A DNA stretch of 64,000 nucleotides from Escherichia coli (GCF_011045215.1 NZ_CP049201.1); one strand, 5' to 3'; positions 3,148 to 41,370 are shown, numbered from the stretch's first letter. A program made the numbers and translations. Notes: generated by a model not told the origin, from the sequence alone.

Positions 3148-3244
<97 letters not shown>

Positions 3245-6918: not shown

Positions 6919-9092
<2,174 letters not shown>

Positions 9093-9183: not shown

Positions 9184-9203
9184 CACAAACGTGAAAATCC
9201 TTG
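9184..9203. repeat. prophage attL core (20-bp direct repeat)
   Basis: AAAATCCTTGTTGATGAAAA is repeated exactly at 46009..46028; the two copies bracket the prophage. Confidence 0.65.
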
Positions 9204-9296
9204 TTGATGAAAAAAACAAAGATTTAATTTATTGATATAAAAGGATTTGTATCAGCGTATGTCCACGCGGTGACCACATTTTCGAGAGGTAGAGTA

Positions 9297-9323
9297 AGCC
9301 CGCAACATTGCGGGCTTTGTCTT
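9297..9323 (+). terminator. plus-strand hairpin and T-tract just inside the prophage left end
   Basis: agcccgcaacattgcgggct followed by ttgtctt; in the circularised phage this would lie downstream of int across attP. Confidence 0.45.
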
Positions 9324-10113
9324 ATGGTTCGATCGCCGTTTTGAGACGTTGTGTTGCTACATCAAAATAATGATCACTGGTTTCTATACCAATAAATTTG
9401 CGTCCTGCTTTCAGTGCAGCCACACCCGTTGTCCCTGACCCCATAAAAGGATCAAGGACTGTTCCACCACTATTCGCAGTCCTGACCAGCTCTGCCATAA
9501 GTTCTTCTGGCTTTCCGGTCGGGTGCATTTTCTTTGACGGGATAACCGGGAACGTCATGCAGCCGTCGAACGGACCTGAAGGCGATTTATCTAAATGGCC
9601 TTTGCTGCCCCAGACGATGTATTCACACTGATGCCGGAAATACCCCGTATGGGGTGTTCGTGACCCCCTTCCTTTGTTCCACACAATGATTCCACGCCAT
9701 GTAAAACCGCTGGCCTGAAACGCATCGGTTAAAGCTGGTAGTTGTCGCCAGTCAGTAAATACCAGGGCATAACCGCCCGGTCTGACCGCGCGGTGTGCCT
9801 GTGCCATCCATAATTGTGTCCAGTAAGCCCACGAACGGGCGTCCATGTTTTCACCCGCGAACCCATCAAAGCGGTGAAGGTTCCCGCCGTTCAGATATTT
9901 TGCATGGCTGCCCTGGTTGGTGCGTCCGGCCTTGTGTGTCGCACCCGAACTGTAAGGCGGGTCAGTGATTAAAGCATCAATGCTTTCTGGCTCAATCAGC
10001 GGCAATATTTCCAGCGCATTCCCACGACAGAGCGTGGCATTGTCAGTCTGATAAACCTTAGTGTGTTCCGGTGTATGTGCTGGTTGGTGCTGGATTGCGA
10101 TCCCCACGGTCAT
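9322..10113 (-). CDS. DNA amino-methyltransferase (N6-adenine or N4-cytosine)
   Basis: 263 aa; DPPY motif (ITDPPYSSG) precedes the AdoMet motif (FMGSGTTG), i.e. permuted motif order; AGGAG 3 nt before the ATG, lying inside the com 3' end. Confidence 0.85.
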   Translation of the reverse strand: MTVGIAIQHQPAHTPEHTKVYQTDNATLCRGNALEILPLIEPESIDALITDPPYSSGATHKAGRTNQGSHAKYLNGGNLHRFDGFAGENMDARSWAYWTQLWMAQAHRAVRPGGYALVFTDWRQLPALTDAFQASGFTWRGIIVWNKGRGSRTPHTGYFRHQCEYIVWGSKGHLDKSPSGPFDGCMTFPVIPSKKMHPTGKPEELMAELVRTANSGGTVLDPFMGSGTTGVAALKAGRKFIGIETSDHYFDVATQRLKTAIEP

Positions 10114-10255
10114 AACTCCTCATGTGTGTGGGGTGCTCGATGGCTCTCGTTATCTGGTTAAGTGTTTTGCAGCGCGGACATTTTATTTCAATGTAGTGAA
10201 ATGAGGCGCGGGCAAGTAGTTTGTTGCAATTTTTGCATCGTACATTTTGCGTCAT
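10058..10255 (-). CDS. com: Com-like zinc-finger translational regulator
   Basis: MTQNVRCKNCNKLL...IEIKCPRCKTLN resembles Mu Com as recalled (CxxC...CxxC); 3' end overlaps the methyltransferase start by about 56 nt. Confidence 0.75.
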   Translation of the reverse strand: MTQNVRCKNCNKLLARASFHYIEIKCPRCKTLNQITRAIEHPTHMRSYDRGDRNPAPTSTYTGTH

Positions 10256-10302
10256 TTGCGGCACCTCTTGTGTGGTTACTGCTGCCGATATGATAGCAAA
10301 TC

Positions 10303-10490: not shown

Positions 10491-10631
10491 TTACTGCTTA
10501 CACTGTAAGAACGCCGCAAACTCCGCTCCCCAGAAGCTCATCCGTATTTCGCATAGCGAACCGTGCAGCATCCAGATGATGAGGATTGCCGTCACGCAGA
10601 ACGTGATGGCCGTAAGCGATTTTTGCGACAT
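10491..10631 (-). CDS. hypothetical 46-aa hydrophobic peptide
   Basis: MSQKSLTAITFCVTAILIIWMLHG...; AAGGAG 8 nt upstream of the ATG; below the ORF-track cutoff so read directly from sequence. Confidence 0.3.
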   Translation of the reverse strand: MSQKSLTAITFCVTAILIIWMLHGSLCEIRMSFWGAEFAAFLQCKQ

Positions 10632-12391: not shown

Positions 12392-13576
12392 ATGAGTGAA
12401 ACTCGTTTTCATGGTGCCCGTGTTACGGAAAATACCGACCTGGTAACAGCGATTAACGATGTTGATTCCAGCGTTATCGGTATCGTGGCAACGGCGGATG
12501 ATGCGGACGCGAAGCTGTTCCCGCTGAACAAGCCCACACTGCTGACCCGCGTCAATGACGTGCTGGGAAAATGCGGGACAACGGGGACGCTTTATCGTGC
12601 GCTTAAGGCCATCGCAGACCAGGTGAGCACAAAGGTGATCGTCGTTCGCGTGGCTGAACACAAAGAAGAAGACGGAAAAACGCAGGATCAACTGGTTATC
12701 GGTGGTTCTGAATCTGACGGCAGCTATACGGGGATGTATGCGCTGCTTGTTGCAGAGCAGGATGAAAGCATCGGATACCGTCCGCGTATTCTGGCCGCGC
12801 CGGAGCTGGACACGGAGGCGGTAACAAAATCCCTGTGCGTGATTGCGGGTAAACTGCGCGCGTTTGTGTATGCCTCATGTCACGGCTGTAACACGATGGC
12901 TGAGGCGATTACCTACCGCCAGAAATTCAACGAACGTGAGGTGATGCTCTTATGGCCGGACTTCATCGCCTACAACCCGAAAAGTGGCAAAAACGAAACG
13001 TTCCCCGCGCCTGCCTATGCGTGCGGCCTTCGTGCGTACATTGACCATGAGCAGGGATGGCACAAATCACTGTCCAACGTTCCGGTTAAAAATGTGCTGG
13101 GGATGTCGAGGCATGTGTTCTGGTCGTTGCAGGCCGAAGACAGCGATGCCAACAGCCTCAACAACAAAGAAATCACGACCATTATTCGTCGCAACGGGTT
13201 CCGCTTCTGGGGCAACCGCACACCGGAAACGAACGCCTACATCTTTGAGGTGTATACCCGAACCGCACAGGTGCTGGCTGATTCAATTGCGGAAGCGCAG
13301 TTTGAAACCATCGACAGTCCACTGACGCCTGCGAACGTGAAGGATGTTATCAGTGCCATCAGGGCAAAACTGGATTCACTGGTTACTGCCGGGAAACTGA
13401 TTGGCGCGGAGTGCTGGTATGACGTGGTGGATAACAGCACCACGGATTTACGTCAGGGGCGTGTGCGTATTCGCTACAAATATACGCCTGTTCCCCCGCT
13501 GGAAGACATGGAGCTTTACCAGACGTTTACTGATGAATACTTTGAACCCGCATTTGCGGTGCTGGGAGGTGCCTGA
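12392..13576 (+). CDS. FI: contractile tail sheath protein FI
   Basis: 394 aa; strong resemblance to P2 gpFI (..FPLNKP..RNGFRFWGNRT..YTPVPPLE..). Confidence 0.92.
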   Translation: MSETRFHGARVTENTDLVTAINDVDSSVIGIVATADDADAKLFPLNKPTLLTRVNDVLGKCGTTGTLYRALKAIADQVSTKVIVVRVAEHKEEDGKTQDQLVIGGSESDGSYTGMYALLVAEQDESIGYRPRILAAPELDTEAVTKSLCVIAGKLRAFVYASCHGCNTMAEAITYRQKFNEREVMLLWPDFIAYNPKSGKNETFPAPAYACGLRAYIDHEQGWHKSLSNVPVKNVLGMSRHVFWSLQAEDSDANSLNNKEITTIIRRNGFRFWGNRTPETNAYIFEVYTRTAQVLADSIAEAQFETIDSPLTPANVKDVISAIRAKLDSLVTAGKLIGAECWYDVVDNSTTDLRQGRVRIRYKYTPVPPLEDMELYQTFTDEYFEPAFAVLGGA

Positions 13577-14088
13577 TGGCTGTGCCAAAACATCTTCGCT
13601 TTTTTACGCTGTTTGTGGATGGTGAAAACGAAGTGGGTAAGGTGACGTCCGTCACTCTGCCTAAGCTGACGCGCAAAACCGACAGCTACCGGGGTGGCGG
13701 CATGATGGGTGCGGTAAGTATTGATCTCGGTCTGGACGACTCCGCGCTTGATGCGAGCTTTGTCATGGGGGGCGCAGTTCGTGAGCTGTTCCTTAAGTAT
13801 GGCGGCACGATTGACGGCACGCTGCTGCGTTTTGCGGGTGAATACTACACCGATGCAGAAAGCGACCTGTATGAAGTCGAAATGCGCGGACGTGTGACGG
13901 AAATTGATATGGGGGAAGCCAAACAGGGCGAAGCCACATCACACACTTACGCCATTAAAAACACCTACTACAAGCTGAGTGTTAACGATCGCCCGTTGTG
14001 GGAGATTGACCTGCTGAACTTCATTTACCGGAAGGACGGCAAGGACATTGTGCCCGATCGCATCCGTTCCGCGCTTGGGCTTGGCTGA
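13576..14088 (+). CDS. FII: tail tube protein FII
   Basis: 170 aa; VTLPKLTRK..YRGGGM motif of P2 gpFII. Confidence 0.9.
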   Translation: MAVPKHLRFFTLFVDGENEVGKVTSVTLPKLTRKTDSYRGGGMMGAVSIDLGLDDSALDASFVMGGAVRELFLKYGGTIDGTLLRFAGEYYTDAESDLYEVEMRGRVTEIDMGEAKQGEATSHTYAIKNTYYKLSVNDRPLWEIDLLNFIYRKDGKDIVPDRIRSALGLG

Positions 14089-14142
14089 TAAGTAATATGC
14101 AGGCGGCGCAGTGCGTCGCCTCTGACTGAAAGGAGTTTCCTG

Positions 14143-14508
14143 ATGAAAGAGACGAAAAACATCGATACCGAAAACACGGTAGTTACTGACACTGTGAAAG
14201 AAACCAGTGAGCGTGGCGTAAAACTTACCCAACCAATTGAGCGAGGCGGCGAAAAAATCACGTATGTGGAGATCACCGGGGCTATTGAGCAGGCTGGATC
14301 TCTGCGAGATTTGTCGCTGTCTGATGTGCTGAATCTGAAAGCGGAATCCATGTTTACGCTGCTGTCACGCGTGACATCACCGCGACTGGATGAAGTGACG
14401 ATCAAAAAAATGGCATCCCGTGACTTTATTCAGTTATGTGTGGTTGCCGTAAATTTTTTGAGCGGTGCGGACTCTGGCGGGAAGAACGAACAGGCGACGG
14501 AAGCCTGA
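14143..14508 (+). CDS. E: tail assembly chaperone gpE
   Basis: 121 aa ORF immediately upstream of the tape-measure gene; overlapped by a -1 frame extension. Confidence 0.8.
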   Translation: MKETKNIDTENTVVTDTVKETSERGVKLTQPIERGGEKITYVEITGAIEQAGSLRDLSLSDVLNLKAESMFTLLSRVTSPRLDEVTIKKMASRDFIQLCVVAVNFLSGADSGGKNEQATEA

Positions 14509-14672
14509 TCACGGTTGTGTGCTTTGAGCACATAGAAGACTTTGTGGCGGATATTGCCGCCATTTTTAACTGGTCGCCCGCCGAAATCTTCATGATGACG
14601 CCCGGCGAAGTGGTTAGCTGGCGTGAGCGGGCGGCACTTCGCAGCGGGAATGCAGACAATGAAGACTCTTGA
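14436..14672 (+). CDS. E': E' extension, translated as an E+E' fusion by -1 frameshift
   Basis: ORF in the -1 frame relative to E, overlapping the E 3' end and the T 5' end; conserved arrangement in long-tailed phages. Confidence 0.7.
   Translation: MCGCRKFFERCGLWREERTGDGSLITVVCFEHIEDFVADIAAIFNWSPAEIFMMTPGEVVSWRERAALRSGNADNEDS
14454..14460 (+). other. programmed -1 ribosomal frameshift slippery site (TTTTTTG) producing E+E'
   Basis: aaa-ttt-ttt-g within gpE; the -1 frame continues ..FFERCGLWREERTGDG.. to a stop at 14672. Confidence 0.75.
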
Positions 14673-17466
14673 TATCCGGGTCGCTTTCAGCGCCGTTGAC
14701 AGGCTGACCCGGCCTGCCGAAAACGCCCGCCGCCTGATGGGGCAGTTTGGTGACTCCATCCAGCGAACGCAGGGGGCGATCAAAAATCTCGAGCGTCAGG
14801 CGCGTTCATTTGAGCGCGCCCGTGACGCTGTCAGTAAAGCGGATGCTGGCATATTGAAAGCACGACGCCAGCTTAACGCCCTTAATCAGTTACAACGCAC
14901 GGGTACAGTGCTCAGCGAAAAACAACAAAAGCTGATGCAGCAGTTAAGCACCCGGCTTGAACGCCTGAATGAATCGCGCACACGTGAAATTCAGAAAATG
15001 CGGGAGCTTGGCGGAGAGCTGAAACGCCACGGCATTTCCCTGACAGGCAGCGATAACACCATCCAGCAGGCCATCAGACGCACCGAACAGTACAACAACC
15101 AGCTTGAACGCGAACGGCAGGCGCTTGCGCGTGTAACGCGGGCGCGTGAGCGGTATTCGCGCGTGCAGGAAACCGCGGGAAAACTGAAAACAGGTGGTGC
15201 GCTGGCAATTGGTGCGGCAGCGGCGGGCGGCTATGCTGCCGGGCGTTTTTTGCAGCCTGCGATCGGGTTCGGGAAAGAGATGTCCCGCGTTCAGGCGCTG
15301 ACGCGAATCGACCAGAACAGCCCACAGTTTAAGGCGCTGCGTGAGCAGGCGTTAAAACTTGGCTCTGAAACGCAGTTCACCGCTGGAGATGCCGCCAGTG
15401 GACAGGCATTTCTTGCAATGGCTGGCTTCACACCACAGGCCATTCAGGCTGCGCTTCCCGGTGTGCTGAGCATGGCAACGGCTGGCGGTATGGATCTCGG
15501 TGAGACGGCGGATATTGGCTCAAACATCCTGACGCAGTTCGGCCTTTCTGCCGACCAGATGGACCGGGTCGGTGACACGCTCACCGCAGCGTTTACCCGT
15601 ACCAACACTGACCTTCGCGCACTGGGCGAAACCATGAAATATGCAGGTCCGGTGGCGGGCAAGCTGGGAATATCGCTGGAGCAGGCCGCAGCGATGGCGG
15701 GCGTGCTGGCGAATATGGGTATCAGGGGAAGTGATGCCGGGACGGCAATGCGTGCCAGCCTGGCTCGTCTGGCATCACCGCCAAAGGCGGCAGCAGAGGC
15801 GCTGAAAGAGCTTGGTGTGGCAGTCTCTGACGCGAACGGCAAAATGCGCCCGATGGAGGATGTGCTGGCCGACCTTTATAAAGCCACCCGCAAATACGGG
15901 GAAGTTGACCGGGTATCGTTCTTTAAGGACATTGCCGGAGAAGAGGCTTTCACATCGTTTATGGCGCTCGTTGATGCAGCGGGTGACGGTTCCTTACCTA
16001 AACTGAGAAAAGAACTTGAAGGCGCGCGCGGTGAGGCTGAACGCACAGCAAAGGTTATGGCCAACAACCTTGACGGCGATCTGAAATCACTCGGCAGTGC
16101 ATGGGAAGGGTTGCGCATCCGCATTGCAGATCTGATTGACGGTCCGCTGCGTTCTGTCACGCAGTGGCTCACACGGGTGGTATCAAGGGTGACGGCGCTG
16201 GCGCAGGCCCATCCGACACTGACGCGCCAGCTACTGATAGCAGGCGGTGCGTTGCTGGCAATGACTGCAACGGTTGGCTCGTTGTCGCTGGCTATTGGTG
16301 TGCTTGCTGGCCCGCTGGCAAAACTGCGTCTTGGTTTTTCTCTCCTGACCGGATCAATGAATGCTGTCAGGGTCCTGCCAGCACTATGGGGAATGGTGAC
16401 GGGTTCCGTTTCTTTGCTGGGAGGTGCTATCGGGGCGCTGTTCAGTCCGGTTGGTCTTATCGTGGCTGCGCTTGCCGGAGCTGCCGTTCTTATCTGGAAA
16501 TACTGGGATCCCATCAGGGCATTTTTTGCCGGGGTGTTCAGCGGGATTATGGAAAGGCTGATCCCGTTGCGCGAAACCTTTGAACAGTTTGGTCCTGTTT
16601 TTGACGCAATCGGAAGCGGGATCAGCCAGGTGTTTAACTGGTTTAAATCGCTGCTGTCACCGATGGAGTCCAGCAAGGAAACGCTGGATAAATGTACCAG
16701 TGCTGGCGAGATATTCGGTAACGTTCTTGGTGGCGCGTTACAGCTTGTTCTGACGCCTGCAAAAATGTTGCTGGATACGCTGGCGTGGATACTTGAAAAA
16801 CTCGGTGTTCTTCCGGATGAAGCGGAAAGGGCGAGAAAGAAAATCGAAGACGCACAGCGTGCGGCCATTCTTCAGGACAAGGTTGCCTTGCTTCAGGGGG
16901 ACCTGGCGAAAATCAATCCGCCGAAGCCTGTGGAAAATGGCAATGGCACCGGAGGTGATAAACCCAAAGACAACAAACCGCTCACAGACAGCAATACCGG
17001 GACGCTACGCAGACTCAGCAAAATTGCTGATAACACAGGTAAGCTGGTTGATGAGACGAAAAAACGCATTGGCCCCGGCGATATTGTCTTTAAGAACCTG
17101 CCCCGCGCACTTGCTGTTCGTGGGGAGTGGCAGGAGCGGAAGATTGCGCAGGTCAGTAAGCCTGCCCCCGCAATTAATATCACACCCGTGGTCCCGGCTC
17201 CGCTGCCTCCGGCGCTGGTCCCTGTTGTTGCGGCCAGCTCCCGCCCGGTGGCGGAGGCTATACGATCTCCAGTGGCATCAGTTCCTGTAACTTCCCGTAA
17301 CCGGGAGCCTGTTGCCTCCGGATTTGGTGGTGAAATTCATGTTCATCTGCATAACGTTGTTACGCAGAATCCCCGCGAACTGGCGAAACTAGTCGGTGAA
17401 ATGGTCAGGGCAGAAATGGAACGGCGCGCCCGTGCCGGGCGTGGCAGTTTTTACGATAAAGATTGA
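14623..17466 (+). CDS. T: tail tape measure protein T
   Basis: 947 aa, coiled-coil N-terminal region, Gly/Ala-rich hydrophobic middle; position between E/E' and U. Confidence 0.9.
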   Translation: MSGRHFAAGMQTMKTLDIRVAFSAVDRLTRPAENARRLMGQFGDSIQRTQGAIKNLERQARSFERARDAVSKADAGILKARRQLNALNQLQRTGTVLSEKQQKLMQQLSTRLERLNESRTREIQKMRELGGELKRHGISLTGSDNTIQQAIRRTEQYNNQLERERQALARVTRARERYSRVQETAGKLKTGGALAIGAAAAGGYAAGRFLQPAIGFGKEMSRVQALTRIDQNSPQFKALREQALKLGSETQFTAGDAASGQAFLAMAGFTPQAIQAALPGVLSMATAGGMDLGETADIGSNILTQFGLSADQMDRVGDTLTAAFTRTNTDLRALGETMKYAGPVAGKLGISLEQAAAMAGVLANMGIRGSDAGTAMRASLARLASPPKAAAEALKELGVAVSDANGKMRPMEDVLADLYKATRKYGEVDRVSFFKDIAGEEAFTSFMALVDAAGDGSLPKLRKELEGARGEAERTAKVMANNLDGDLKSLGSAWEGLRIRIADLIDGPLRSVTQWLTRVVSRVTALAQAHPTLTRQLLIAGGALLAMTATVGSLSLAIGVLAGPLAKLRLGFSLLTGSMNAVRVLPALWGMVTGSVSLLGGAIGALFSPVGLIVAALAGAAVLIWKYWDPIRAFFAGVFSGIMERLIPLRETFEQFGPVFDAIGSGISQVFNWFKSLLSPMESSKETLDKCTSAGEIFGNVLGGALQLVLTPAKMLLDTLAWILEKLGVLPDEAERARKKIEDAQRAAILQDKVALLQGDLAKINPPKPVENGNGTGGDKPKDNKPLTDSNTGTLRRLSKIADNTGKLVDETKKRIGPGDIVFKNLPRALAVRGEWQERKIAQVSKPAPAINITPVVPAPLPPALVPVVAASSRPVAEAIRSPVASVPVTSRNREPVASGFGGEIHVHLHNVVTQNPRELAKLVGEMVRAEMERRARAGRGSFYDKD

Positions 17467-17472
17467 GGAGTC

Positions 17473-17967
17473 ATGGCCATGATGATGATCTACGGCATGT
17501 TTGTTTTTGAGCTGCGCACGCTGCCGCATCAGCAGTTACAGCAAAACAAAAGCTGGCGGCATGTGAAAAATGAACGCGTTAACCGTTCAGCAAGCTGGCA
17601 GTATATCGGTGCAGGTGATGATCGCATCGTTCTTTCTGGTGTGCTTTATCCTGAAATTACAGGTGGCGAAGTGTCGCTGTCGCTGCTGACCACGCAGGCG
17701 TATACAGGACGACCCTGGCCTTTGATTGATGGTGTCGGGCAGATTTACGGCATGTATGTCCTGACCGGAACGAATACGACCCGTTCCGAGTTTGATCGCT
17801 ACGGTAAGGCGAAAAAGATAGAATTTTCACTGACCCTTGAACGCTGTGATGAGGATTTGCGGGAGCGCCTGCAATCCTCATCGTTCAGTGATATGCTGTC
17901 CGGCTTCAAAGATAAGGTCACATCATCCCTTAACAGCGCGGCCAGCTCCGTTAAAGGGCTGTTTTGA
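17473..17967 (+). CDS. U: tail protein U
   Basis: 164 aa; MMMIYGMFVFELRTLPHQ..SWRH resembles the P2 gpU N-terminus. Confidence 0.85.
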   Translation: MAMMMIYGMFVFELRTLPHQQLQQNKSWRHVKNERVNRSASWQYIGAGDDRIVLSGVLYPEITGGEVSLSLLTTQAYTGRPWPLIDGVGQIYGMYVLTGTNTTRSEFDRYGKAKKIEFSLTLERCDEDLRERLQSSSFSDMLSGFKDKVTSSLNSAASSVKGLF

Positions 17968-17974
17968 TTAACGC

Positions 17975-18004
17975 AAAACCGCTAATGGTCAGATTAGCGG
18001 TTTT
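17975..18004. terminator. bidirectional hairpin terminator between convergent U and invertase genes
   Basis: aaaaccgctaat-ggtcag-attagcggtttt: perfect inverted repeat flanked by an A-run and a T-run. Confidence 0.6.
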
Positions 18005-18611
18005 CATTTTCCTGAGTCTGCCTGGTTGTTTCTTCAGCCTGTATATCGCCTACAGGGTGATAACGATAAATCGTCGATATGCCGATGCCGTAAATGATCG
18101 CCAGTTGTTTCCTGTCATGACCGTTTTTGATCAGCCTTGCTATTTGCTCATGCTGTTCTTTTGTCAGCTTCGGGCGACGTCCGCCTGTGCGCCCCCGTGC
18201 GCGCGCTGCCGCCAGTCCGGCCAGTGTACGTTCAACAATTAATTCACGTTCCATTTCAGCCAGGGCACCCATCACGTGGAAGAAAAAACGCCCCATTGGA
18301 GAAGATGTATCTATGCTGTCGGTCAGACTGCGAAAATTAATCCCTCGCTCCCGTAGTTCTCCGACGAGAGAAATCAGATGTTTCATGCTTCGCCCAAGGC
18401 GATCCAGTTTCCAGACAACCAGCGTGTCACCTTTTTGAAGCCGCTTTAAAGCGCGTTTTAATCCCGGTCGGTCTGTCTTTGTCCCGCTTAATTTATCTTC
18501 AAATATTTGTTCACATCCTGCACAAACAAGAGCGTTTCGTTGCAGGTCTGTATTCTGGTCATTTGTTGATACCCTTACATAACCAATCAGCACACTGAAT
18601 CTCCCGTCCAA
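17994..18611 (-). CDS. serine recombinase, DNA invertase (Gin/Pin/Cin/Hin family)
   Basis: ..LIGYVRVSTNDQNTDLQRNAL.. catalytic-Ser N-terminus and C-terminal HTH; true start may be the GTG at 18593 (GGGAG upstream). Confidence 0.92.
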   Translation of the reverse strand: MDGRFSVLIGYVRVSTNDQNTDLQRNALVCAGCEQIFEDKLSGTKTDRPGLKRALKRLQKGDTLVVWKLDRLGRSMKHLISLVGELRERGINFRSLTDSIDTSSPMGRFFFHVMGALAEMERELIVERTLAGLAAARARGRTGGRRPKLTKEQHEQIARLIKNGHDRKQLAIIYGIGISTIYRYHPVGDIQAEETTRQTQENENR

Positions 18612-18647
18612 AAGCGCAAATCATGCCATGCAGGCCGGAAACGGCCA

Positions 18648-18673
18648 TTATCTAAAACCTCGGTTTACAGGAA
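18648..18673. repeat. gix/hix-like recombination site (left end of invertible segment)
   Basis: Reverse complement reads TTCCTGTAAACCGAGGTTTTAGATAA, close to the remembered Gin gix consensus; inverted copy at 21716..21741. Confidence 0.8.
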
Positions 18674-19618
18674 ACGGTAAATCAGGCTTCTGGCGCATTA
18701 CAGAAAAACCAGAACGGCGCAGATATTCCGGGAAAAGATACCTTCACCAAAAATATTGGGGCCTGCCGCGCATATAGCGCATGGCTGGATATTGGTGGCG
18801 ATAGTCAGGTCTGGACAACCGCGCAATTTATTTCGTGGCTGGAGAGTCAGGGAGCATTTAACCATCCTTACTGGATGTGCAAAGGCTCATGGGCTTATGC
18901 AAATAATAAGGTCATTACAGATACAGGTTGCGGAAATATTTGTCTTGCAGGTGCTGTGGTGGAAGTTATTGGCACTCGCGGCGCAATGACCATACGCGTT
19001 ACCACGCCGAGCACGTCCAGCGGTGGAGGAATTACTAACGCTCAATTCACTTATATTAATCATGGTGATGCTTACGCTCCTGGCTGGCGACGAGACTACA
19101 ACACGAAAAATCAACAACCTGCATTTGCTTTAGGGCAAACAGGAAGCACTGTCGGAAATGATAAAGCTGTTGGCTGGAACTGGAATAGCGGGGTCTATAA
19201 CGCAAATATTGGTGGCGCATCGACATTAATCCTCCACTTCAATATGAATACGGGGAGCTGCCCTGCTGCACAGTTCCGCGTGAATTACAGAAATGGCGGA
19301 ATCTTTTATCGTTCAGCGCGTGATGGTTATGGCTTTGAAGCTGACTGGTCAGAGTTTTACACCACAACCCGCAAACCCTCTGCGGGAGATGTTGGTGCAT
19401 ATACGCAGGCAGAATGTAACTCAAGGTTTATTACAGGTATTCGCCTTGGCGGTCTGTCATCTGTTCAGACATGGAATGGTCCCGGCTGGTCTGACAGGTC
19501 AGGTTATGTCGTTACGGGTTCAGTTAACGGAAACCGTGATGAATTAATTGATACAACTCAGGCAAGGCCAATTCAGTATTGCATTAATGGGACGTGGTAT
19601 AACGCGGGGAGTATTTAA
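18674..19618 (+). CDS. alternative (currently silent) tail-fibre C-terminal exon
   Basis: Frame is open from the crossover site ([22 protein letters not shown]..) with no start codon of its own; would fuse in frame to the H constant region after inversion; listed ORF 18875..19618 is its downstream part. Confidence 0.75.
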
Positions 19619-19620
19619 CG

Positions 19621-20154
19621 ATGATGCACTTAAAAAACATTACTGCTGGCAACCCTAAAACAAAAGAGCAATACCAGCTAACGAAACAATTTAACATCAA
19701 ATGGCTTTATTCAGAGGATGGAAAAAACTGGTATGAGGAACAAAAGAATTTCCAGCCAGACACTTTGAAAATGGTCTATGACCATAACGGCGTTATTATT
19801 TGTATTGAAAAGGATGTTTCAGCAATTAATCCGGAAGGCGCAAGCGTCGTTGAATTACCTGATATTACAGCAAATCGCCGTGCTGACATTTCGGGTAAAT
19901 GGATGTTCAAAGATGGCGTAGTGGTAAAGCGAACTTATACCGAGGAAGAGCAGAGGCAGCAGGCGGAAAATGAAAAGCAAAGCCTGCTACAGCTCGTCAG
20001 GGATAAAACCCAGCTATGGGACTCACAGCTACGGCTGGGCATCATTTCCGACGAGAATAAACAAAAATTAACCGAGTGGATGCTCTATGCGCAGAAAGTC
20101 GAATCCACAGACACCTCCAGCCTGCCAGTAACGTTTCCAGGACAACCAGAATGA
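19621..20154 (+). CDS. tail fibre assembly protein, alternative copy (G'/U'-type)
   Basis: 177 aa, [19 protein letters not shown]..; paralogue of the 20183..20710 product with a diverged C-terminus. Confidence 0.85.
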
Positions 20155-20157
20155 GAC

Positions 20158-20182
20158 AAGGCCCGCTATCGGGCCTTAATTT
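20158..20182. terminator. hairpin terminator between the two convergent tail-fibre assembly genes
   Basis: aaggcccgctatcgggcctt followed by aatttttatt. Confidence 0.5.
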
Positions 20183-20710
20183 TTATTCAGGCTTTTGTGG
20201 CCATTCAGGATTTGCCGTATCCACACGGCTGACCAGAACACTGTAGCGTTCCCATGACTCCAGTCGTGTGCGTTCCTCATCCGTCGCCATATTCAGCCTG
20301 ACAGCGCGTTCCAGTGGCTGAATAACGCTTTCAGCTTCGGAAAGTAACGCAGCCTTTTGTGATTCGGCCTGTTGTTGTTGCTCGTCTGCCGTATAAATCC
20401 GTTTAACTACAGCTCCATCCTTAAACATCCACTTTCCTGAACCATCAGCGCGGCGGTTGGCTGTAATATCGGGAACCTCAACGACGCTAAAACCTTCAGG
20501 GTTAAGCGTGGAGGCATCTTTAGTAATGGCGACAATAATATTATTTGCATCGTAAACAATCTTTATTGTGTCTGGCTGAAAGTTTTTCACTTCCTCATAC
20601 CAGTTTTTTCCGTCCTCAGAGTAAAGCCAGATAACTCCGTGTTTCTTTGTTAACTCATACTGTTCCAGTGTTTTAGCGTTACCCGCTTTTATGTTCTTTA
20701 AGTGCATCAT
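20183..20710 (-). CDS. G: tail fibre assembly protein (gpG-type), expressed orientation
   Basis: 175 aa immediately downstream of H on the same strand. Confidence 0.85.
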
Positions 20711-20711
20711 A

Positions 20712-22874
20712 TTAAACGCTCGCTACATTATACCAGGTGCCATTTATATACTTTTGAACGGGTCTGTAATAAACGCCCGCTATATTATCGGCAGAGTTGG
20801 AGCCTGTATCCTGAACATTAATACCAGACAATACATGACCTGACGGGCACTGGAAATTCCATGTTTGCCAGTTGTTCACTCCATAATATTGCTGTGAACC
20901 AAGTCGAACATCTTTCACATATCTGGAATCAAAATTGCCATAATTGCCGGGAATAACTTGCGCACCGCAAAGCCAGTTCCCGTTATTATCCATGTACGCC
21001 TGACCATCGGTGCCATTGGCTGTCCTTGAGTTATTAATCATGTAGATGCCAAATTGCTTATTTCCCAGACCGCCAATCATAAATTTTCGGTCGGCATGGT
21101 CCTGACGGAGCAAGGCCTGGGCGCTATCAGTGTTAACTATATTTTTCCCAAAGATAGCGTTGTTATCGCGCATCTGAATCCACATACCATTACCGCTGTT
21201 AATAGCAAAACGGTCTGAAAGTGTTTCTCCTGAAACATTAAGGCCACGCCCCATCGAAACAGCGCCAGTAGCGTTATTAATCCATAATGGCCTTAATCCG
21301 TTATAAGTCCCCATGTTGTCACCGGAGTTTGTCAACATGAAGTATGTATTTGAACCATCATTACGAATAAAGAATCCGTAACTACCATAAGCAATACGTA
21401 GGCCGTTTGCTGATTTTGATATGACTTCGCCATTTACAATGGCATTGACAAGAACATACAAAGCATCCCATTTAAGATTCATCAGGTCTTTTGTTGTGGT
21501 GCCTTGTTTGCTTCTCCATTTGAAATATTCATTGCCGTTGTCGCCTGTTTCAAACCACATGTATGAATCAGTATCGCTGTCGGCATCATTTTTAAATCCA
21601 ATCTTTGCCCAGTCAGTATTTCGAATCCAGGCAAGGATTGAGTCGTTTTCAAAAGTAAGTCCACCGGACAAGGTATCGCCTGTCTTTTGAACGGCGTTAC
21701 CAGCCTTGTTTACCGTTTCCTGTAAACCGAGGTATTCGATAACGGCGGCAACGGTCGATTTCGCAAGAATATCCCGCCCAACTTTTGTCAGGGTTGCCAA
21801 GCTGGCAACATCATTCCCCGTAAAATACGGAAACCTGTCTGCCGCAGTAGCAAGCCCGGCCAGCGCCGTCAGGGTGGCATCTTTCGGTTGCTTACCCGCA
21901 AGCGCGTTAGTCATGGTGGTCGCAAAATTCGGGTCGTTGCCCAACGCCGCAGCCAGCTCGTTCAGCGTATTCAGTGCGTCAGGCGACGAGTCCACGAGGG
22001 CAGCGATCGCAGCCATAACATAAGCCGTGCTTGCGATCTGAGTATTGTTAGTACCTTTTGGCGCAGTTGGTGTTGTTGGTGTTCCGGTCAGTGCCGGGCT
22101 GTTTAATGGGGCTTTCTTGTTCGTTTCATCCATTACCGCCTTAACCGCTTTTGGTGTCGCTGCCAGCGTTTCAGACGTGCTGTTGGTTGCACTACTAAGC
22201 TGGACAAGGCCTTTTCGCGTTGTAGTGGCGTCCTGAGCGGTATATTTTCCGTTAGCCAGGTCATACGCGGCCTTTACTGCTTTCGGCGTTGCAGCCTGCG
22301 TTTCAGAATCGTTGTTAGTGGCGCTACTGAGTTGAACAAAGCCTTTTGCGGTCAGCGAGGCATCCGGGTGACGTCGTGACTGTTCATGCTCTTTCAGTTT
22401 GTCATTCACGTAATCCACTGTGGCCATAACCATGGTGTTATCCACGGTAAGCGCCACGGTGGCAGTGCTGGATACGGTCAGAATGGTGCGAAATGTTTGT
22501 GCACGTCCGGACCCTTCGGCAACGGCTGGCTTGTAACTTTCGGCAGTATTGCCCACCGCGATCAAATCGCCGTGCTCATCAAACACACCAATTTCCCGGA
22601 TCCAGAATCCGCCCGTTTCAGGAGGAATAACCAGCTCTGCAATAATGCGGTTCTGATGTGTTGCGTCCAGGATGATGCGATTAACAGTATGTCGCCACAC
22701 CTCATGCACCAGACGGGTCTGCTTACTGTCTGGTGTGGGCAATGTACCGCCACCGTCGCCCACGGCCATATGAGTCAGGCGGACAGGCTTACCATCTGGC
22801 GCGGCTGCCTGAGCTAATTTTTTGGCACCCGTATCGGTGATAACGGTTTTAAATTTTCGTGTTGTGGTACTCAT
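20712..22874 (-). CDS. H: tail fibre protein H (constant N-terminus 22874..21742, variable C-terminus 21715..20712)
   Basis: 720 aa; N-terminus [34 protein letters not shown] resembles P2 gpH; a gix-like site lies in frame inside the gene. Confidence 0.9.
21716..21741. repeat. gix/hix-like recombination site (right end, inside H)
   Basis: TTCCTGTAAACCGAGGTATTCGATAA; inverted repeat of 18648..18673, differing only near the centre. Confidence 0.8.
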
Positions 22875-22876
22875 GC

Positions 22877-23407
22877 TTAATCGTCCGGATAAATGGTAAT
22901 GACTTCGCCGTCGTAAGTTGCTGCCGCCGCGAAAATATCTCCCTGAATCTCCTGAATGATATTCAGCCCTGTCATGTGGCGGCTGACCGGGCGGGCATCA
23001 GCAATCAACCGCTCCATTTCCAGATACATTTCCTCGGTCACACCACTGTCCAGCGTGCCGACTTCAACGGTAAATGTTCCCGGTTCTCCGCCGAACTCCC
23101 ACCACTCAGACACACGAATGAGGTATCCCAGCGGCTCAATGGCCCGGCGCAGTGCGCTGATGGTCCCTTTGTGTCGGTGTATCAGCCATGCATCACGAAT
23201 CACCTGTCGTTTTGTCTCTTCCGGCCAGTTGCGATCCCAGCGGTCAACGGAAAATGCCCAGGCGAGATAAGGCAGCAGGTGCACCGGGCAGGTGTCCGGC
23301 GACCACAGCGTGTTGAGGTCTACCGGAATGTCTGTAATGCGTGTTCCGACGGCTTCGGCACAACGCATGAAACTGCTGGCTGATGGCGGTAACAGTGAAT
23401 TACTCAT
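22877..23407 (-). CDS. I: baseplate protein I
   Basis: Listed ORF 22877..23440; probable start MSNSLLPP; P2 gpI-like, follows J. Confidence 0.82.
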   Translation of the reverse strand: MSNSLLPPSASSFMRCAEAVGTRITDIPVDLNTLWSPDTCPVHLLPYLAWAFSVDRWDRNWPEETKRQVIRDAWLIHRHKGTISALRRAIEPLGYLIRVSEWWEFGGEPGTFTVEVGTLDSGVTEEMYLEMERLIADARPVSRHMTGLNIIQEIQGDIFAAAATYDGEVITIYPDD

Positions 23408-24296
23408 TGCGCCCACCTTCGCTGATGGTGAATGACTCACAGCGCGCCGCCTGTATGTCGCTGATGGCCATATTCTGTGTGGGTTCGATTATCTCCACGC
23501 GTTGCACACCGTGCACATGCAGTGCGGCAGCAATGGCGGACAACGCCACGTCCTGACCGATAAGCCCCTGCTCAGCCAGCCACTTCCTGAACGACGATTC
23601 CGCCGCCGCCAGAATAGGTTCGGATTCCGGACCGGGGTAAAAGTACAGTTTTGCATTCAGCCGCCATGTCACGATTCTGGCGCTCTGTACGGTCAGGCGG
23701 TCGGCCACCGGGCGGGTATCCTCTGCATTCAGAACGGCGCGAACGGTATTAAGCAACGCCTCCGTTGCTGTGCCGTCGCCTTCAGTGGACAGGATGGAAA
23801 CCGTCACATTTGCCGGAGACGGACTGATAGCCCGCGCATCACGCACCAGACCGCTGGCGCTGCGGGCAAAATACTCGTATGCACCTGACGGGCCAGCAAC
23901 ACTCAGGCCGTCGTACGCCCGTTGCGCCCGCAGTCTCAGCGAGGTGTCGCTTTCCATCACCGCGTCGGTGGTATCCGTTGCCGGAGTGATAACCAGGCGC
24001 TTTGTGTTCATATTGCCCGCGAGGTTGTCCAGGTCTGTCCCGGCGCTGTGGCTTAACATGCAGGCGCGTGCACCCTCGTTAACCCGCTGGCGTAACAGCA
24101 TTTCACGAAACGACATGGTTTGAGCGATAACGTTAAGGGGTTCCGATTCCAGCTCCAGCGCGGCGGAAACGGCTTCACGCTGTTCGGCGGGATAAGCCGC
24201 AATCATCATGGCCTTTGTGTCAGCCAGAATTGCCTCAAAGTCAGGCTCCGCGATGATGGCGGGGTCCGGTAACTGTGAAAGGTCAACGGCGGGCAT
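23400..24296 (-). CDS. J: baseplate assembly protein J
   Basis: 298 aa; P2 gpJ-like in length and position. Confidence 0.85.
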   Translation of the reverse strand: MPAVDLSQLPDPAIIAEPDFEAILADTKAMMIAAYPAEQREAVSAALELESEPLNVIAQTMSFREMLLRQRVNEGARACMLSHSAGTDLDNLAGNMNTKRLVITPATDTTDAVMESDTSLRLRAQRAYDGLSVAGPSGAYEYFARSASGLVRDARAISPSPANVTVSILSTEGDGTATEALLNTVRAVLNAEDTRPVADRLTVQSARIVTWRLNAKLYFYPGPESEPILAAAESSFRKWLAEQGLIGQDVALSAIAAALHVHGVQRVEIIEPTQNMAISDIQAARCESFTISEGGRNE

Positions 24297-24299
24297 GAT

Positions 24300-24650
24300 T
24301 TACTCCCTCAGCGTGATGGTTAATTCAACATTCTGCATGGTCTGCATGACAGTGCCCGACAGCGTCACCCCGGCGCGGCCTCCCGCTTTCCAGACAACGT
24401 CGATGGCATCCAGGGCAATGCGGGGTTCCCATCGTGTCAGCGCAATCACGGCAGCACTCATGCATTGCAGACGCGTGGTGTTATTCATGGGTTCGTCAAT
24501 CAAATCAGGCACAAGGCTGCCATATTCCCGTCGCATAACCCGGCTTGCCAGCGGGGTGGTCAGGATATCCCTGACTGACTGTTTCAGGTGCTCCATATCG
24601 TTCAGGTTTCCCGTCCCGTCCGGATTCATTCCTGTGTAGCGGGTTGTCAC
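24300..24650 (-). CDS. W: baseplate wedge protein W (gp25-like)
   Basis: 116 aa; size and position as P2 gpW. Confidence 0.85.
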   Translation of the reverse strand: MTTRYTGMNPDGTGNLNDMEHLKQSVRDILTTPLASRVMRREYGSLVPDLIDEPMNNTTRLQCMSAAVIALTRWEPRIALDAIDVVWKAGGRAGVTLSGTVMQTMQNVELTITLRE

Positions 24651-25228
24651 TGCGGGCCTCCTGTCGAATCGCTGCCGCCTTTCACGCCACCGTGTTTATG
24701 CGTATGCACGGTAATGCCGTTTGAGGTGAAGTTGCCGCCGCTGTGCGTGATATTGCCGCTCATCTTTCCTCCTTTTGTGACGTCAAGCGTCGCCGTTCTC
24801 AGAAGGTTTGTGCATTCCACGACGGGCGTATCCAGTTTCACGCTGACGGATGCCTGTAAAGTGGCCGTTTTCATGCCGCTGGCGCTCAGTGCGCCAGCGT
24901 CCGCGTCGTAGCGGAACATCGCGCCGTCCGGCGCGCTGATCACGATTTCTTTCAGGCTTTTGCCGGGTGCCGGATTGGCATCACTCCACAGACTGCCAAT
25001 TATCATGGCGGTTTCCGGGTTGCCGCCAATGCAGGCAATTACCACCTGTTCGCCTGGTGATGGCGGCAGCCACACATTGAAGGCTCCCGCGCGCGTGGTG
25101 TTCCAGCGCAACCAGCCTGTTTCCAGTTCGCCGCTGCGAACGCGCACGCGCCAGGACTTCTCATCAACTTCAGAGATGATCCCGGTGCGGATGATGTTGC
25201 TCAGCAGTCGCATGAGTTCTGCGCTCAC
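24647..25228 (-). CDS. V: baseplate spike/assembly protein V
   Basis: 193 aa; C-terminal ..HTHKHGGVKGGSDSTGGP typical of gpV. Confidence 0.85.
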   Translation of the reverse strand: MSAELMRLLSNIIRTGIISEVDEKSWRVRVRSGELETGWLRWNTTRAGAFNVWLPPSPGEQVVIACIGGNPETAMIIGSLWSDANPAPGKSLKEIVISAPDGAMFRYDADAGALSASGMKTATLQASVSVKLDTPVVECTNLLRTATLDVTKGGKMSGNITHSGGNFTSNGITVHTHKHGGVKGGSDSTGGPQ

Positions 25229-25869
25229 CGTACAGCCTCCGCAATCCGGCCCAGCACCGTGTTATAAATCAGGCGCTCATCTGCCTGGCTGATACCCAGC
25301 AGCTCACGTACCGGGTAATCGGTGAAAATGCCCGGCGCAACCTGATCGCGCTCACCGAACTGATGAACGCGGGCAATACGTGCGGCCACGCCGCTGTAAC
25401 CCACCGTCACACCGGAAGCATCTGCACGTGCTTTCAGGTAGCGGGCGGTGCGCAGTTTCACGAACATGGGGACGCGCTTTGTGCTGTCCTGGTTGATGCG
25501 CCGGGTGCGTATTTCCAGAAAACGGTCGATGTCATCCCGGTAAAACGTGCGGATGTTGTTTTTATCCTCATCCCACCCGGTAATGGTTCGCCCGTATTTC
25601 CCCGTGTCGTGATGCCAGTTTTTCAGCGTGCGTGCTTCGTTATTCCAGATAAAGCGAATGCGTTCCTGTATCCGGGTTACGCGGCGTCTGCGTGGTGTCC
25701 ACGCGGTCTCGTCCGGCGCTTTCTGTGACCGGATACGCGCCTGCTGGGCGCGGCGTAAATCCTGTGCCAGCTTTCTGGCGATGTTATTGATGGCCTGCTG
25801 ATTCAGGCTGTCGCGGATGGCCTCAAAGGTTTCATCCACGCGGGTGAATGCCTTATCCATCGCTTTCAC
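25225..25869 (-). CDS. S: virion morphogenesis / tail completion protein (gpS-like)
   Basis: 214 aa basic protein between R and V; longer than P2 gpS, so family assignment is tentative. Confidence 0.7.
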   Translation of the reverse strand: MKAMDKAFTRVDETFEAIRDSLNQQAINNIARKLAQDLRRAQQARIRSQKAPDETAWTPRRRRVTRIQERIRFIWNNEARTLKNWHHDTGKYGRTITGWDEDKNNIRTFYRDDIDRFLEIRTRRINQDSTKRVPMFVKLRTARYLKARADASGVTVGYSGVAARIARVHQFGERDQVAPGIFTDYPVRELLGISQADERLIYNTVLGRIAEAVR

Positions 25870-26320
25870 CCCACGTCACATCCTGGAATACATGCGACCA
25901 GTCGCCTTCGGAAGATGGCAGGCGGGGTTTTGGCTCCGGCAGGTGTTCTGCCTGCGGTGTGCCCTGACTGCTGCGCGTGATGCGAACGCGTTCCCGCAGG
26001 GGGAGCGTAAACAGGAGATCGGCGCTGTCATCGTCATTGATAACGGCGGAGAATTTGATGTCCTGATTACGCTCAGGGTTGAGCAACAACTGTGGCTGAT
26101 TTTCGGATAACCACGCCAGCAGCGGCAGCGTGAGGTCGTCCAGCTCCCCGGCGTAATCCATGACAAACATCACCATCTGATAGCGGTAAACAAACGATGG
26201 GGTTTCTCCTGTCGTTTCAATGTTGCCGCTCTCCACGAAAATGGTGAATTTTTCCGGGTTGGCCTGACACCATCGGCATGAACGGGTCATGGCTTCACGC
26301 AGGGAATCAGTTTTCAGCAT
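25853..26320 (-). CDS. R: tail completion protein R
   Basis: 155 aa; size and position match P2 gpR. Confidence 0.78.
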   Translation of the reverse strand: MLKTDSLREAMTRSCRWCQANPEKFTIFVESGNIETTGETPSFVYRYQMVMFVMDYAGELDDLTLPLLAWLSENQPQLLLNPERNQDIKFSAVINDDDSADLLFTLPLRERVRITRSSQGTPQAEHLPEPKPRLPSSEGDWSHVFQDVTWGESDG

Positions 26321-34731: not shown

Positions 34732-35229
34732 ATGAACCCAATAACACTACAAATCATCAGCAATGCTATTGTTCTGCTTGGCGTTTTGGTTGCCATTGGA
34801 ACCATTATCTACAATGTGCGTACCGCAAAAAAAACTCAAACGGCCAACTTTCTTTTTGAGAGTCGGCAAGATATGCAATATATAGAGTCATTGCATACCC
34901 TGAAACAAGTGCATCGTTCAGGCAAATCATTTCGTTCTTATGTTTTTCCTTGTGATGGTTGTACAATAACAGATGAGGAAATGGCCGAGCGTCGAAAATT
35001 TCAATATATTTTAAATTTTTACGAGCGAGTTGCTGTAAGTATTCGTGAAGGTATTTATGATGAAAAAATGATAAAAAGAACATCTTACACAACAGTTGTA
35101 GAGACATATGATATTGCCGAGCCATTAATTAAAGCAATCAGAGAAAGCATTAATTCGGATACTACATATCAAGAATTCGAATGGTTAGTAAGAAGATGGA
35201 AAGCTAATCCTTTACGGAAAAACAAATAA
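34732..35229 (+). CDS. hypothetical protein with single N-terminal TM helix (accessory cassette gene 1)
   Basis: 165 aa; N-terminal hydrophobic helix then a charged soluble domain; no family recognised. Confidence 0.65.
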   Translation: MNPITLQIISNAIVLLGVLVAIGTIIYNVRTAKKTQTANFLFESRQDMQYIESLHTLKQVHRSGKSFRSYVFPCDGCTITDEEMAERRKFQYILNFYERVAVSIREGIYDEKMIKRTSYTTVVETYDIAEPLIKAIRESINSDTTYQEFEWLVRRWKANPLRKNK

Positions 35230-35268
35230 TGTTTTACCCTTTAATTTACAAGTAACACAGGGGGAAGT

Positions 35269-36111
35269 GTGACACAGAATCCGTTTTCATTTTATGACTT
35301 TTTGGGCTATCTAATTCCAGGTGGGTTATTCCTGTTTATCCTTTTTTTGTTTTCTATTGAAATTAACCCTGTTTATATAGAAGGTATTCTTAACCACATC
35401 CTGAAATATAAAGAAATAATAAGTGTATTTATATATGTGGTATTAATTGTTCTATCATATATTTCAGGTCACTTCATATCTATTCTATCATCCTGTTTAA
35501 TTGAAAAATACATGAACAGTAAACTTGGGTATCCTTCAATTTATCTGTTTTCTAAAAGAAGCTCCCTGAAAATAAAACGACATAATACTAAGTTCAGTAT
35601 AGTTCATTTTATCCGTGGAGTTTTTTTACTTCCTGTATCAGCTTTTGATAAAGCAGAACATCATAAAACCACTCTGCATTCTATACTTATTAAAGTCTTT
35701 TGGCCGCAAATACGAGATGGTTATATAAATGTTTTTTCTGTATCTACGCTATATCGACGTAAGGGCTTGAGGGGCGATCTTTTTCGCCTTGCTTATCATT
35801 ATGTGTATGAACATTCTAAAAATCATCAGGTGAAAATGCAAAACTATGTTGCTTTGTATGGTTTTTGTAGAAACATTACATTTGTTTTTCTCGCTTCAGT
35901 CTGGTTGCTTATATGCCTGTTCCCTCTATCCTTTTTAATAGATATAAATATCAGGTTGTTACCTTTTTGTTTTCTTCTCTTGTTTTGTATTGCTGCATCC
36001 CGAGTATTTTATTATGGTTTTGTTAAGTATTATCGCCGCTATTCTCTTGAGGTTTTAATGGCATTTGCGGTACTTCAGCACGATAAAAAAACTTCGGCAA
36101 TTCCATCATGA
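35269..36111 (+). CDS. hypothetical polytopic membrane protein (accessory cassette gene 2)
   Basis: 280 aa, GTG start preceded by AGGGGGAAG; about 5-6 hydrophobic segments; visibly AT-rich; no family recognised. Confidence 0.65.
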   Translation: MTQNPFSFYDFLGYLIPGGLFLFILFLFSIEINPVYIEGILNHILKYKEIISVFIYVVLIVLSYISGHFISILSSCLIEKYMNSKLGYPSIYLFSKRSSLKIKRHNTKFSIVHFIRGVFLLPVSAFDKAEHHKTTLHSILIKVFWPQIRDGYINVFSVSTLYRRKGLRGDLFRLAYHYVYEHSKNHQVKMQNYVALYGFCRNITFVFLASVWLLICLFPLSFLIDINIRLLPFCFLLLFCIAASRVFYYGFVKYYRRYSLEVLMAFAVLQHDKKTSAIPS

Positions 36112-36194
36112 TTTGAAACATTGGCACCCTGTTAGCAAGGGTGCCAGAATGATGTGTTGGTATGTATTTTATTAGTTCAAATACAATTGTCAGA

Positions 36195-36509
36195 TTATTC
36201 TGGGAATAAGGTCTGAATATTCTTTTTTATTTTATAAAAATTGCATTCAACTCCGCTAGGCTGATTAGCCTGGTATGTTTCCTTGATGCTAACGGTATTG
36301 AAGGGGAGGTTGTCCTCTGGCCATTCGGCCATCCAGTAGGCAAATGCTGGGTTGCGCTTTATGAGTGCTAGCCCAGCCAGAAAGGCCGCGCGTTGCGCGC
36401 GGCTGCGTTCGGAGGCTGGCAGGCTATCGAGGTAATTGCACGCCTCCTGTTCACTCTTGACGGCGGCGGGCTTCAGATAGAAACTTATCCGTCTGGTTGG
36501 TGTCGTCAT
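36195..36509 (-). CDS. ParR-like partition adaptor / DNA-binding protein
   Basis: 104 aa; N-terminus (RRISFYLKP..CNYLDSLPASERSRAQRAAFLAGLALIKRNP) resembles plasmid R1 ParR as recalled; directly downstream of the ParM-like gene. Confidence 0.65.
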   Translation of the reverse strand: MTTPTRRISFYLKPAAVKSEQEACNYLDSLPASERSRAQRAAFLAGLALIKRNPAFAYWMAEWPEDNLPFNTVSIKETYQANQPSGVECNFYKIKKNIQTLFPE

Positions 36510-36513
36510 TGGT

Positions 36514-40745: not shown

Positions 40746-41227
40746 TGCGGCAATCCTCTTGTTACAGATGTGCGAAGGCCTCCCGCCGCAAGGTGCAGGA
40801 AAGGCCCGGAACAGGAATTAATGGAGTTTGTTTTGCTGCTGGATGAGCTGTTGAAGCTCGTGCAGATCATCCGCCAGATAGCTGAAAACAGAGGCGGAAT
40901 AAATGTTTGATAGTGCGTGGCTGCGCTCATGCCGCATATTGATGTGCATGATTTGCGCGACGCGTGATGCGCGGGAAAGTCTGCGGTTGATTTCAGTCTG
41001 GATGTGACGACGCTCCGCGATAGCGCGGTGCTGTTTGCGGTCTGCCATGGTGTGGCCTCTTTGCTCGGTGATAGAAATAACTCACCATCCAGAGTTGAGA
41101 ATCTCGGGGTGGCGAGACGTACAGGGTTCTCAACACCGGAGAGCAAAGAATCCGGCCCGACCGAAGTCGGCCCCGTACGCCCCGCCATAATTCTGACGCG
41201 AAAAAGACGTGGCAATACAGTACGCAC

Positions 41228-41248
41228 AAAAAAACCGCTTGCGCGGTT
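41228..41248 (-). terminator. rho-independent terminator (minus strand)
   Basis: On the minus strand aaccgcgcaagcggtt followed by TTTTTTT. Confidence 0.5.
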
Positions 41249-41370
41249 ATGCGCTTTGCTCTGTATCGGGTTGAGAATCCCGGCACCCGTTTTATGAGGT
41301 GCAGCGGAAATGTAACCTGACCGATTGAGGCATGGCAAGCGGTTTTTTTGTGTGTGCATGTTCTGGTTTC

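Follow-up and report, generated by a model that had tools for sequence, protein, structure and literature searches.

A predicted Mu-type invertible tail-fibre switch in a P88-type prophage of Escherichia coli

A locus for tail-fibre switching by DNA inversion was investigated in a 64,000-nucleotide (nt) stretch of the Escherichia coli record NZ_CP049201.1. This whole stretch is called the window, and all coordinates are 1-based positions on one strand of it. Judged by its sequence, the locus is a Mu-type invertible tail-fibre switch that belongs to the Gin/Hin/Cin/Pin class and is homologous to the Mu G and P1 C cassette. Very probably, a complete P88-type (P2-like, Peduoviridae) E. coli prophage here carries a programmed inversion switch of the Mu G type that is active or was so until very recently. 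Gin and the G segment form a textbook system, and the architecture is itself already known, since it is annotated in phage P88, in related Xuanwuvirus genomes and in hundreds of RefSeq E. coli genomes.

A preliminary description of this DNA had claimed a serine invertase gene of the Gin/Pin/Hin family beside a segment of about 3.0 kb. Both were found: an intact open reading frame (ORF) of 199 amino acids (aa) at 17994-18593 on the minus strand, and a gix-bounded segment of 3.07 kb at 18660-21730, which measures 3071 bp between the central dinucleotides of its two gix sites. The window was scanned with the Mu gix site as read from the Mu genome, allowing up to three mismatches, with 100 shuffles as the control. 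The scan returned exactly two sites, with 0.00 expected by chance. The gin-proximal site (TTATCTAAAACC-TC-GGTTTACAGGAA; 18648-18673, plus strand) had one mismatch to Mu gix, and the site inside the fibre gene (TTATCGAATACC-TC-GGTTTACAGGAA; 21717-21742, minus strand) had two. The two sites, each made of 12-bp half-sites around a 2-bp core, were inverted relative to each other and had identical central dinucleotides, so that the alignment proposed earlier for the two 26-bp sites gave the same TC core in both. The inverted 26-bp gix-like sites of the preliminary description were thus both present; the left one was placed exactly, while the right one had been given as 21716-21741 and lies 1 nt further on. 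The invertase gene was located 55 bp from a gix site. No further gix-like site was found in the window at up to 3-4 mismatches, which indicates a simple two-state switch; a multi-state shufflon was rejected on the same ground.

The fibre gene crosses one border of the segment. The current fibre ORF (20712-22874, minus strand) encodes 720 aa, of which the N-terminal 386 aa form the constant part Sc (21731-22874, minus strand). Sc lies outside the segment, is similar to P2 gpH and matched tail-fibre and collar PHROGs. The gix site within the gene encodes ...IEYLGLQE... and stands in frame before the residues TVN of this P2 gpH-like ORF, in agreement with the earlier placement of the right site inside tail-fibre gene H. 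Sc is now joined to the variable C-terminal part Sv (20712-21728, minus strand; homologous to Mu Sv), which is followed by the currently expressed U (20183-20710, minus strand; PHROG 136, 6.5e-81), the tail-fibre assembly chaperone for Sv. From the other end of the segment runs Sv' (18662-19618, plus strand), a silent alternative C-terminal fibre exon that lacks its own start codon at the gix end and matched tail-fibre PHROGs. It is followed by its own assembly chaperone U' (19621-20154, plus strand; PHROG 136, 7.5e-75), which is currently silent. The genes of U and U' are both intact and convergent, one behind each variable part, and a GC-rich hairpin with a T run (20158-20177, plus strand), terminator-like by consensus match only, lies between them. 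The fibre PHROGs and the PHROG 136 matches of both chaperones therefore bore out the claim of two alternative C-terminal exons in opposite orientations, each with its own assembly gene.

In-silico inversion of 18660-21730 produced an uninterrupted Sc-Sv' fibre of 700 aa ending at 19618. The alternative exon is thus in frame with the constant region, as had been claimed, and the out-of-frame junction that had been named as speaking against the switch was not found. A promoter scan of the region gave three weak matches versus 8.1 expected by chance, with no promoter evident inside the segment. Expression would thus come from outside the segment, and the orientation would therefore decide which C-terminus and which chaperone are made.

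In the constant shaft of the fibre (22138-22347), two copies of a repeat of about 132 nt (44 aa) were observed, with a 78-nt core of 77% identity. P88 has one more shaft repeat (764-aa versus 720-aa fibre); therefore, the shaft repeats vary in copy number.

The invertase gene has a GTG start with GGGAGA just upstream. Its product carries the Pfam domains Resolvase (2.1e-50) and HTH_7 (2.4e-12) and was matched by the PDB Gin entries 4m6f and 3uj3 at an E-value of about 1e-100, with the motif YVRVSTNDQ conserved. Among the NCBIfam models, none was specific to the invertase, the fibre or the chaperones. Over residues 1-117, the invertase is almost the same as Mu Gin (PDB 3uj3/4m6f), and Ser9 and Met114 are present. 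In Gin, S9 is the catalytic serine and M114V is a Fis-independent mutant (PMC3575834); the wild-type M114 found here is consistent with Fis dependence of the invertase. The P88 invertase shared 98.4% identity with that of the window over 182 aa.

The DNA-binding domain has diverged from Mu Gin, and alignment showed that its helix-turn-helix is nearer to Hin than to Gin. Residues specific to Fis/enhancer-dependent invertases have been listed as K47, K/R48 and K/R51 in helix B and Q151, R154 and L155 in the DNA-binding domain (Hin numbering), and these residues contact Fis and the enhancer (McLean et al., PMC3798978). In the alignment, K46, R47 and K50 within GLKRALKRL of helix B occupy the Hin positions 47, 48 and 51, and Q150, R153 and L154 of the DNA-binding domain align with Hin Q151, R154 and L155. 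As the homology to Mu ends in the middle of gin, at about codon 120, and the DNA-binding domain is Hin-like, the invertase is chimeric, with a Mu-Gin-like catalytic domain.

The 5' part of gin (18400-18593, minus strand) aligned with the enhancer-bearing part of Mu gin and is homologous to it. The Fis-dependent enhancer of Mu (sis) was reportedly located inside gin, in its 5' part, by Kahmann et al. in 1985. From the gix site through gin codon ~120, the alignment to Mu is gap-free and 90-100% identical, and it includes an identical run of 98 nt (18484-18581). The gap-free alignment means that gix and the predicted enhancer are as far apart as in Mu. By analogy, the 5' region of gin would act as a Fis-dependent enhancer in this prophage.

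Comparison with Mu showed that window positions 18205-21749 are collinear with the 5' part of gin and the G segment in the reference G(+) orientation, with 91.4% nucleotide identity over 3548 aligned nt. Together with about 91-92% for P1, this value upheld the earlier likening of the segment to the Mu G and P1 C segments. The homology to Mu extends from the fibre gene's gix site to mid-gin (~codon 120), and the features labelled "G-segment boundary" in the Mu record fall on the central dinucleotide of the corresponding sites. At the protein level, identity to Mu was 91.4% for U, 97.2% for U', 98.7% for Sv' and 86% for Sv. Sv is nearly identical to Mu Sv for about 273 aa and then divergent over the last ~60 aa. 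For the Sv tip together with U, the highest nucleotide identities were those to SfMu (92.5%) and a Peduovirus P2 record (91.8%).

Both orientations of the segment occur in nature. The two possible Sc junctions were built as queries of 451 nt each and searched against 5,426 complete E. coli genomes, a junction being counted as contiguous when at least 80% of the query was covered. The present Sc-Sv junction was contiguous in 357 genomes and the flipped Sc-Sv' junction in 126. In one record, that of KSC9 (NZ_CP018323.1), both junctions were found at 100% identity. The beginning of this record, ~32.9 kb long, is a repeat of its final ~33 kb, with the chromosomal genes flk and part of yfcJ among the duplicated sequence; the repeat has many indels and frameshift flags and is apparently the untrimmed overlap of a circular long-read contig. 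Between the two copies of the KSC9 prophage, exactly the 3103-bp gix-to-gix interval is inverted; this interval is 99.8% identical without gaps, and its flanks are unchanged. One copy is collinear with the window, and the other differs from it only by inversion of the segment. At each KSC9 gix site, the outer half-sites (…CGAATACC or …CTAAAACC) had swapped their inner flanks (…GGTAAACAAGG or …GGTAAATCAGG), which places the exchange inside the 25-bp core that holds the TC dinucleotide. Such a pattern is the signature that reciprocal site-specific recombination at gix would leave. If the overlap is correctly read, both orientations were present in one sequenced KSC9 culture. The enzyme that catalyses inversion between the sites would be the neighbouring invertase, whose activity on them is inferred from the observed orientation polymorphism.

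The presence of both junctions in KSC9 raised the question of a second prophage copy in the window; this was rejected, as self-BLAST found none. KSC9 was also seen to carry IS621 (IS110 family) between mnmC and yfcL (L003 37117-38395), which is absent at about position 3197 of the window, with otherwise 99-99.9% identity.

A mechanism can be proposed from the Mu and Hin systems (PMC3575834, PMC3798978). Dimers of the invertase would bind the two inverted 26-bp gix sites, and the sites would synapse on supercoiled DNA at the enhancer in the 5' part of gin, where bound host Fis would activate the invertase. Ser9-linked double-strand breaks would be made at the central TC/GA dinucleotide, one pair of subunits would rotate by 180 degrees, and religation of the strands would leave the 3.07-kb segment inverted. 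As the fibre promoter, the start codon and the first 386 codons (Sc) should lie outside the segment, the C-terminal receptor-binding part fused in frame to Sc would differ between the two orientations. As now oriented, the segment would give Sc-Sv (720 aa) with chaperone U, and once flipped Sc-Sv' (700 aa) with chaperone U'. The virions released by a population of lysogens would then be of two kinds that differ in receptor specificity, which would be a form of bet-hedging for host range. The host ranges of Mu G(+) and G(-) are established knowledge, and swapping the C-terminal regions of the P88 fibre alters the host range of that phage (PMC5285337). Following Mu and these P88 fibre swaps, the orientation of the segment probably sets the host range of the phage.

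Several points weigh against a working switch of this kind. The outer gix half-sites deviate from those of Mu at one or two positions, and the divergence of the DNA-binding domain from Mu Gin bears on the activity of the invertase on these sites. Unusual conservation of the 5' part of gin was considered as a sign of enhancer constraint and rejected, the 98-nt run being only the fifth or sixth longest in the Mu alignment. The flipping rate and the dependence on Fis and the enhancer are inferred for this prophage, and the overlap in KSC9 is deduced from the structure of the record. Mu gives no guide to the receptors, because the last ~60 aa of Sv, at its tip, diverge.

The first two of these points speak for a frozen relic, in which the architecture inherited from an active ancestor has ceased to flip, for instance through inactivity of the chimeric invertase on these sites, and Sv'-U' is dead cargo. 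This explanation was judged improbable, for the ORFs of the silent Sv' and U' have stayed intact, with 97-99% identity to Mu, gin is intact with its catalytic and regulatory residues kept, and near-identical prophages exist in both orientations, including the two KSC9 copies that differ only by the inversion.

The origin of the orientation differences was considered separately. Each gix site forms part of a longer imperfect inverted repeat of 45-62 nt (62 nt at 79%; 45 nt at 89%) with a 25-bp perfect core, and the enzyme that acted cannot be deduced from sequence; RecA-dependent homologous recombination between the repeats, rather than the invertase, might thus have produced the two orientations. 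However, the perfect identity extends over only 25 bp, which is at or below the minimal efficient substrate of RecA. A canonical gix lies at the centre of the core, a dedicated invertase gene stands intact at a distance of 55 bp, both orientations are common (357 versus 126 genomes), and the corresponding sites are a proven Gin substrate in Mu (PMC3575834). Recombination by RecA was therefore regarded as very unlikely.

Hardly any weight was given to a switch that flips but serves the bacterium through surface or defence properties, as with the Pin-type recombinases of cryptic prophages, where PinQ inversion inhibits T2 adsorption (PMC12529663), since the prophage here is complete and like P88, which is inducible and plaque-forming (PMC5285337), and inversion affects late structural genes, those of the fibre and the chaperones, without an evident promoter inside the segment.

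The invertible tail-fibre switch belongs to a prophage that extends from ~9.2 to 46.0 kb of the window, between flk and pdxB. The P2-like setting given in the preliminary description was made more specific: the whole locus and its flanks are ~94% identical at the nucleotide level to phage P88 (Peduoviridae, Xuanwuvirus). P88 is annotated with genes for a DNA invertase, for two tail fibres and for two assembly proteins, arranged in the order seen in the window. The paper on P88 does not mention inversion, an invertase or a second fibre (PMC5285337); this silence is an oversight and not a gap in knowledge. The prophage has a full P2-type gene set, including int, cox, gpA, portal, terminase, capsid, lysis, baseplate, sheath, tube, tape measure, gpD and ogr. 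The near-identical KSC9 prophage was annotated by PGAP with int, cox, gpA-like, portal, terminase, GPO, P2-family capsid protein, gpM, X, holin, V, W, J, I, sheath, tube, E, T, U, D and ogr.

At the two ends of the ~36.8-kb prophage (9194-9213 and 46009-46028), a 20-bp sequence (AAAATCCTTGTTGATGAAAA) was observed as a direct repeat. One copy is just outside flk (8097-9092, minus strand) and the other just upstream of pdxB (46030-47142, plus strand); the repeat is a candidate for the att core at which the phage integrated between these two genes.

The block of sheath, tube, E, tape-measure and U tail genes (12392-17967, plus strand) is inverted relative to the P2 gene order with respect to the baseplate, fibre and gpD/ogr genes (18000-26300, minus strand). 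No gix-like site flanking this block, which might have explained the inversion relative to P2, was found at up to 3-4 mismatches. The block converges on gin, and a 12-bp perfect hairpin (17975-18004) is located between the end of the convergent tail gene at 17967 and the end of gin at 17994; the layout of P88 is alike. The hairpin is likely a bidirectional terminator.

Other features were observed elsewhere in the prophage. Two Rfam matches above the gathering score, C4 antisense RNA (RF01695, 78.5 bits; 41105-41192, minus strand) and isrK (RF01394, 63.1 bits; 41228-41302, minus strand), fall in the early/immunity region and suggest a module controlled by antisense RNA of the P1/P7 type. At the flk-side end, a small ORF for a Com-like zinc-finger protein overlaps the start of an orphan type-II-like DNA methyltransferase gene (9322-10113 and 10058-10264, both minus strand). 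The zinc-finger ORF is annotated as 'Com family' in KSC9, and the layout recalls com-mom of Mu with the methyltransferase in place of Mom. An ORF of 46 aa (10491-10631, minus strand) encodes a type I toxin of the Hok/Gef family, with a weak NCBIfam match to HokA (2e-8); no Sok RNA was found in the window at the Rfam gathering score.

Between the portal and replication genes lies a cargo block (34732-37473). It encodes a DUF4760 protein (34732-35229, plus strand), a 280-aa protein with a weak Csx27-like PADLOC match of 6e-6 (35269-36111, plus strand), a partition protein (36195-36509, minus strand) and ParM (36514-37473, minus strand). The block may be an accessory or defence hotspot; to our knowledge, plasmid-type partition genes are unusual in an integrated P2-like prophage. 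Outside the prophage, a direct repeat of ~695 nt with 70% identity (56150-56843 and 57153-57846) represents the paralogous periplasmic binding-protein genes hisJ and argT and is ordinary.

Basic understanding gains little from this locus, as the cassette is already widely annotated. When P88-type phages or prophages are used, as in host-range engineering or phage therapy, two virion populations that differ in their fibres are to be expected. Heterogeneity from inversion can also leave traces in assemblies, as in the KSC9 record, where both orientations were kept. An even chance was given to a joint proposal: that P88-type phages are two-state and their published host ranges describe one state, that the G cassette (enhancer-bearing 5' half of gin, gix, Sv'U'/USv, gix) travels as a unit, and that the chimeric invertase might act in trans on other invertible segments in the cell.

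Among the closest known systems are the Xuanwuvirus phages (P88, P884B11 and Citrobacter phiSM), with which the locus shares identical gix sites, the annotated gene set and the genome layout. The Sc of P88 has 87% aa identity to that of the window; the P88 fibre is longer by the additional 44-aa shaft repeat, and the window Sv is only 66% identical to P88 Sv.

With the Gin-associated G segment of Mu and D108, the locus shares the order and orientation of gin, gix, Sv', U', U, Sv and gix, and the 26-bp gix with a TC core; D108 showed 94.8% nucleotide identity to the window segment. Unlike Mu, the window has a P2 gpH-like Sc with 17% aa identity to Mu Sc, and a tip of the SfMu/P2 type takes the place of the last ~60 aa of Sv and of the beginning of U. 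The Mu locus stands at the genome end beside com-mom, whereas that of the window stands between convergent tail operons. The C segment of P1, P7 and D6 with Cin is similar in its variable segment (~91-92% nucleotide identity over ~3 kb) and in the logic of Sc with alternative Sv/U, but has a different recombinase gene (cin), a different constant region and a different host replicon (plasmid prophage). Mosaic exchange of fibre tips among P2, Mu and P1 is said to be long established through Haggård-Ljungquist in 1992 and Sandmeier in 1994.

The P segment of e14 with Pin and the P2-like prophage segments of EPEC E2348/69 are likewise Fis-dependent serine-invertase switches of tail-fibre C-termini, and flipping of the EPEC segments was shown experimentally in clonal cultures (PMC4272514). 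The EPEC segments differ in their length of ~1.9-2.0 kb and in their pix-type repeats (AAACCTTGGTTTGGGAGAA); the flipped E2348/69 loci were accordingly rejected as the same cassette, being shorter segments of the pix/P type. Carotovoricin Er and other tailocins share the P2-type contractile tail and the invertase-switched fibre C-terminus. In carotovoricin Er, according to Nguyen et al. 2001 as cited in PMC4272514, a DNA invertase switches the fibre C-terminus and so changes the target range; carotovoricin Er is a headless Pectobacterium bacteriocin, whereas the switch described here is carried by a complete prophage.

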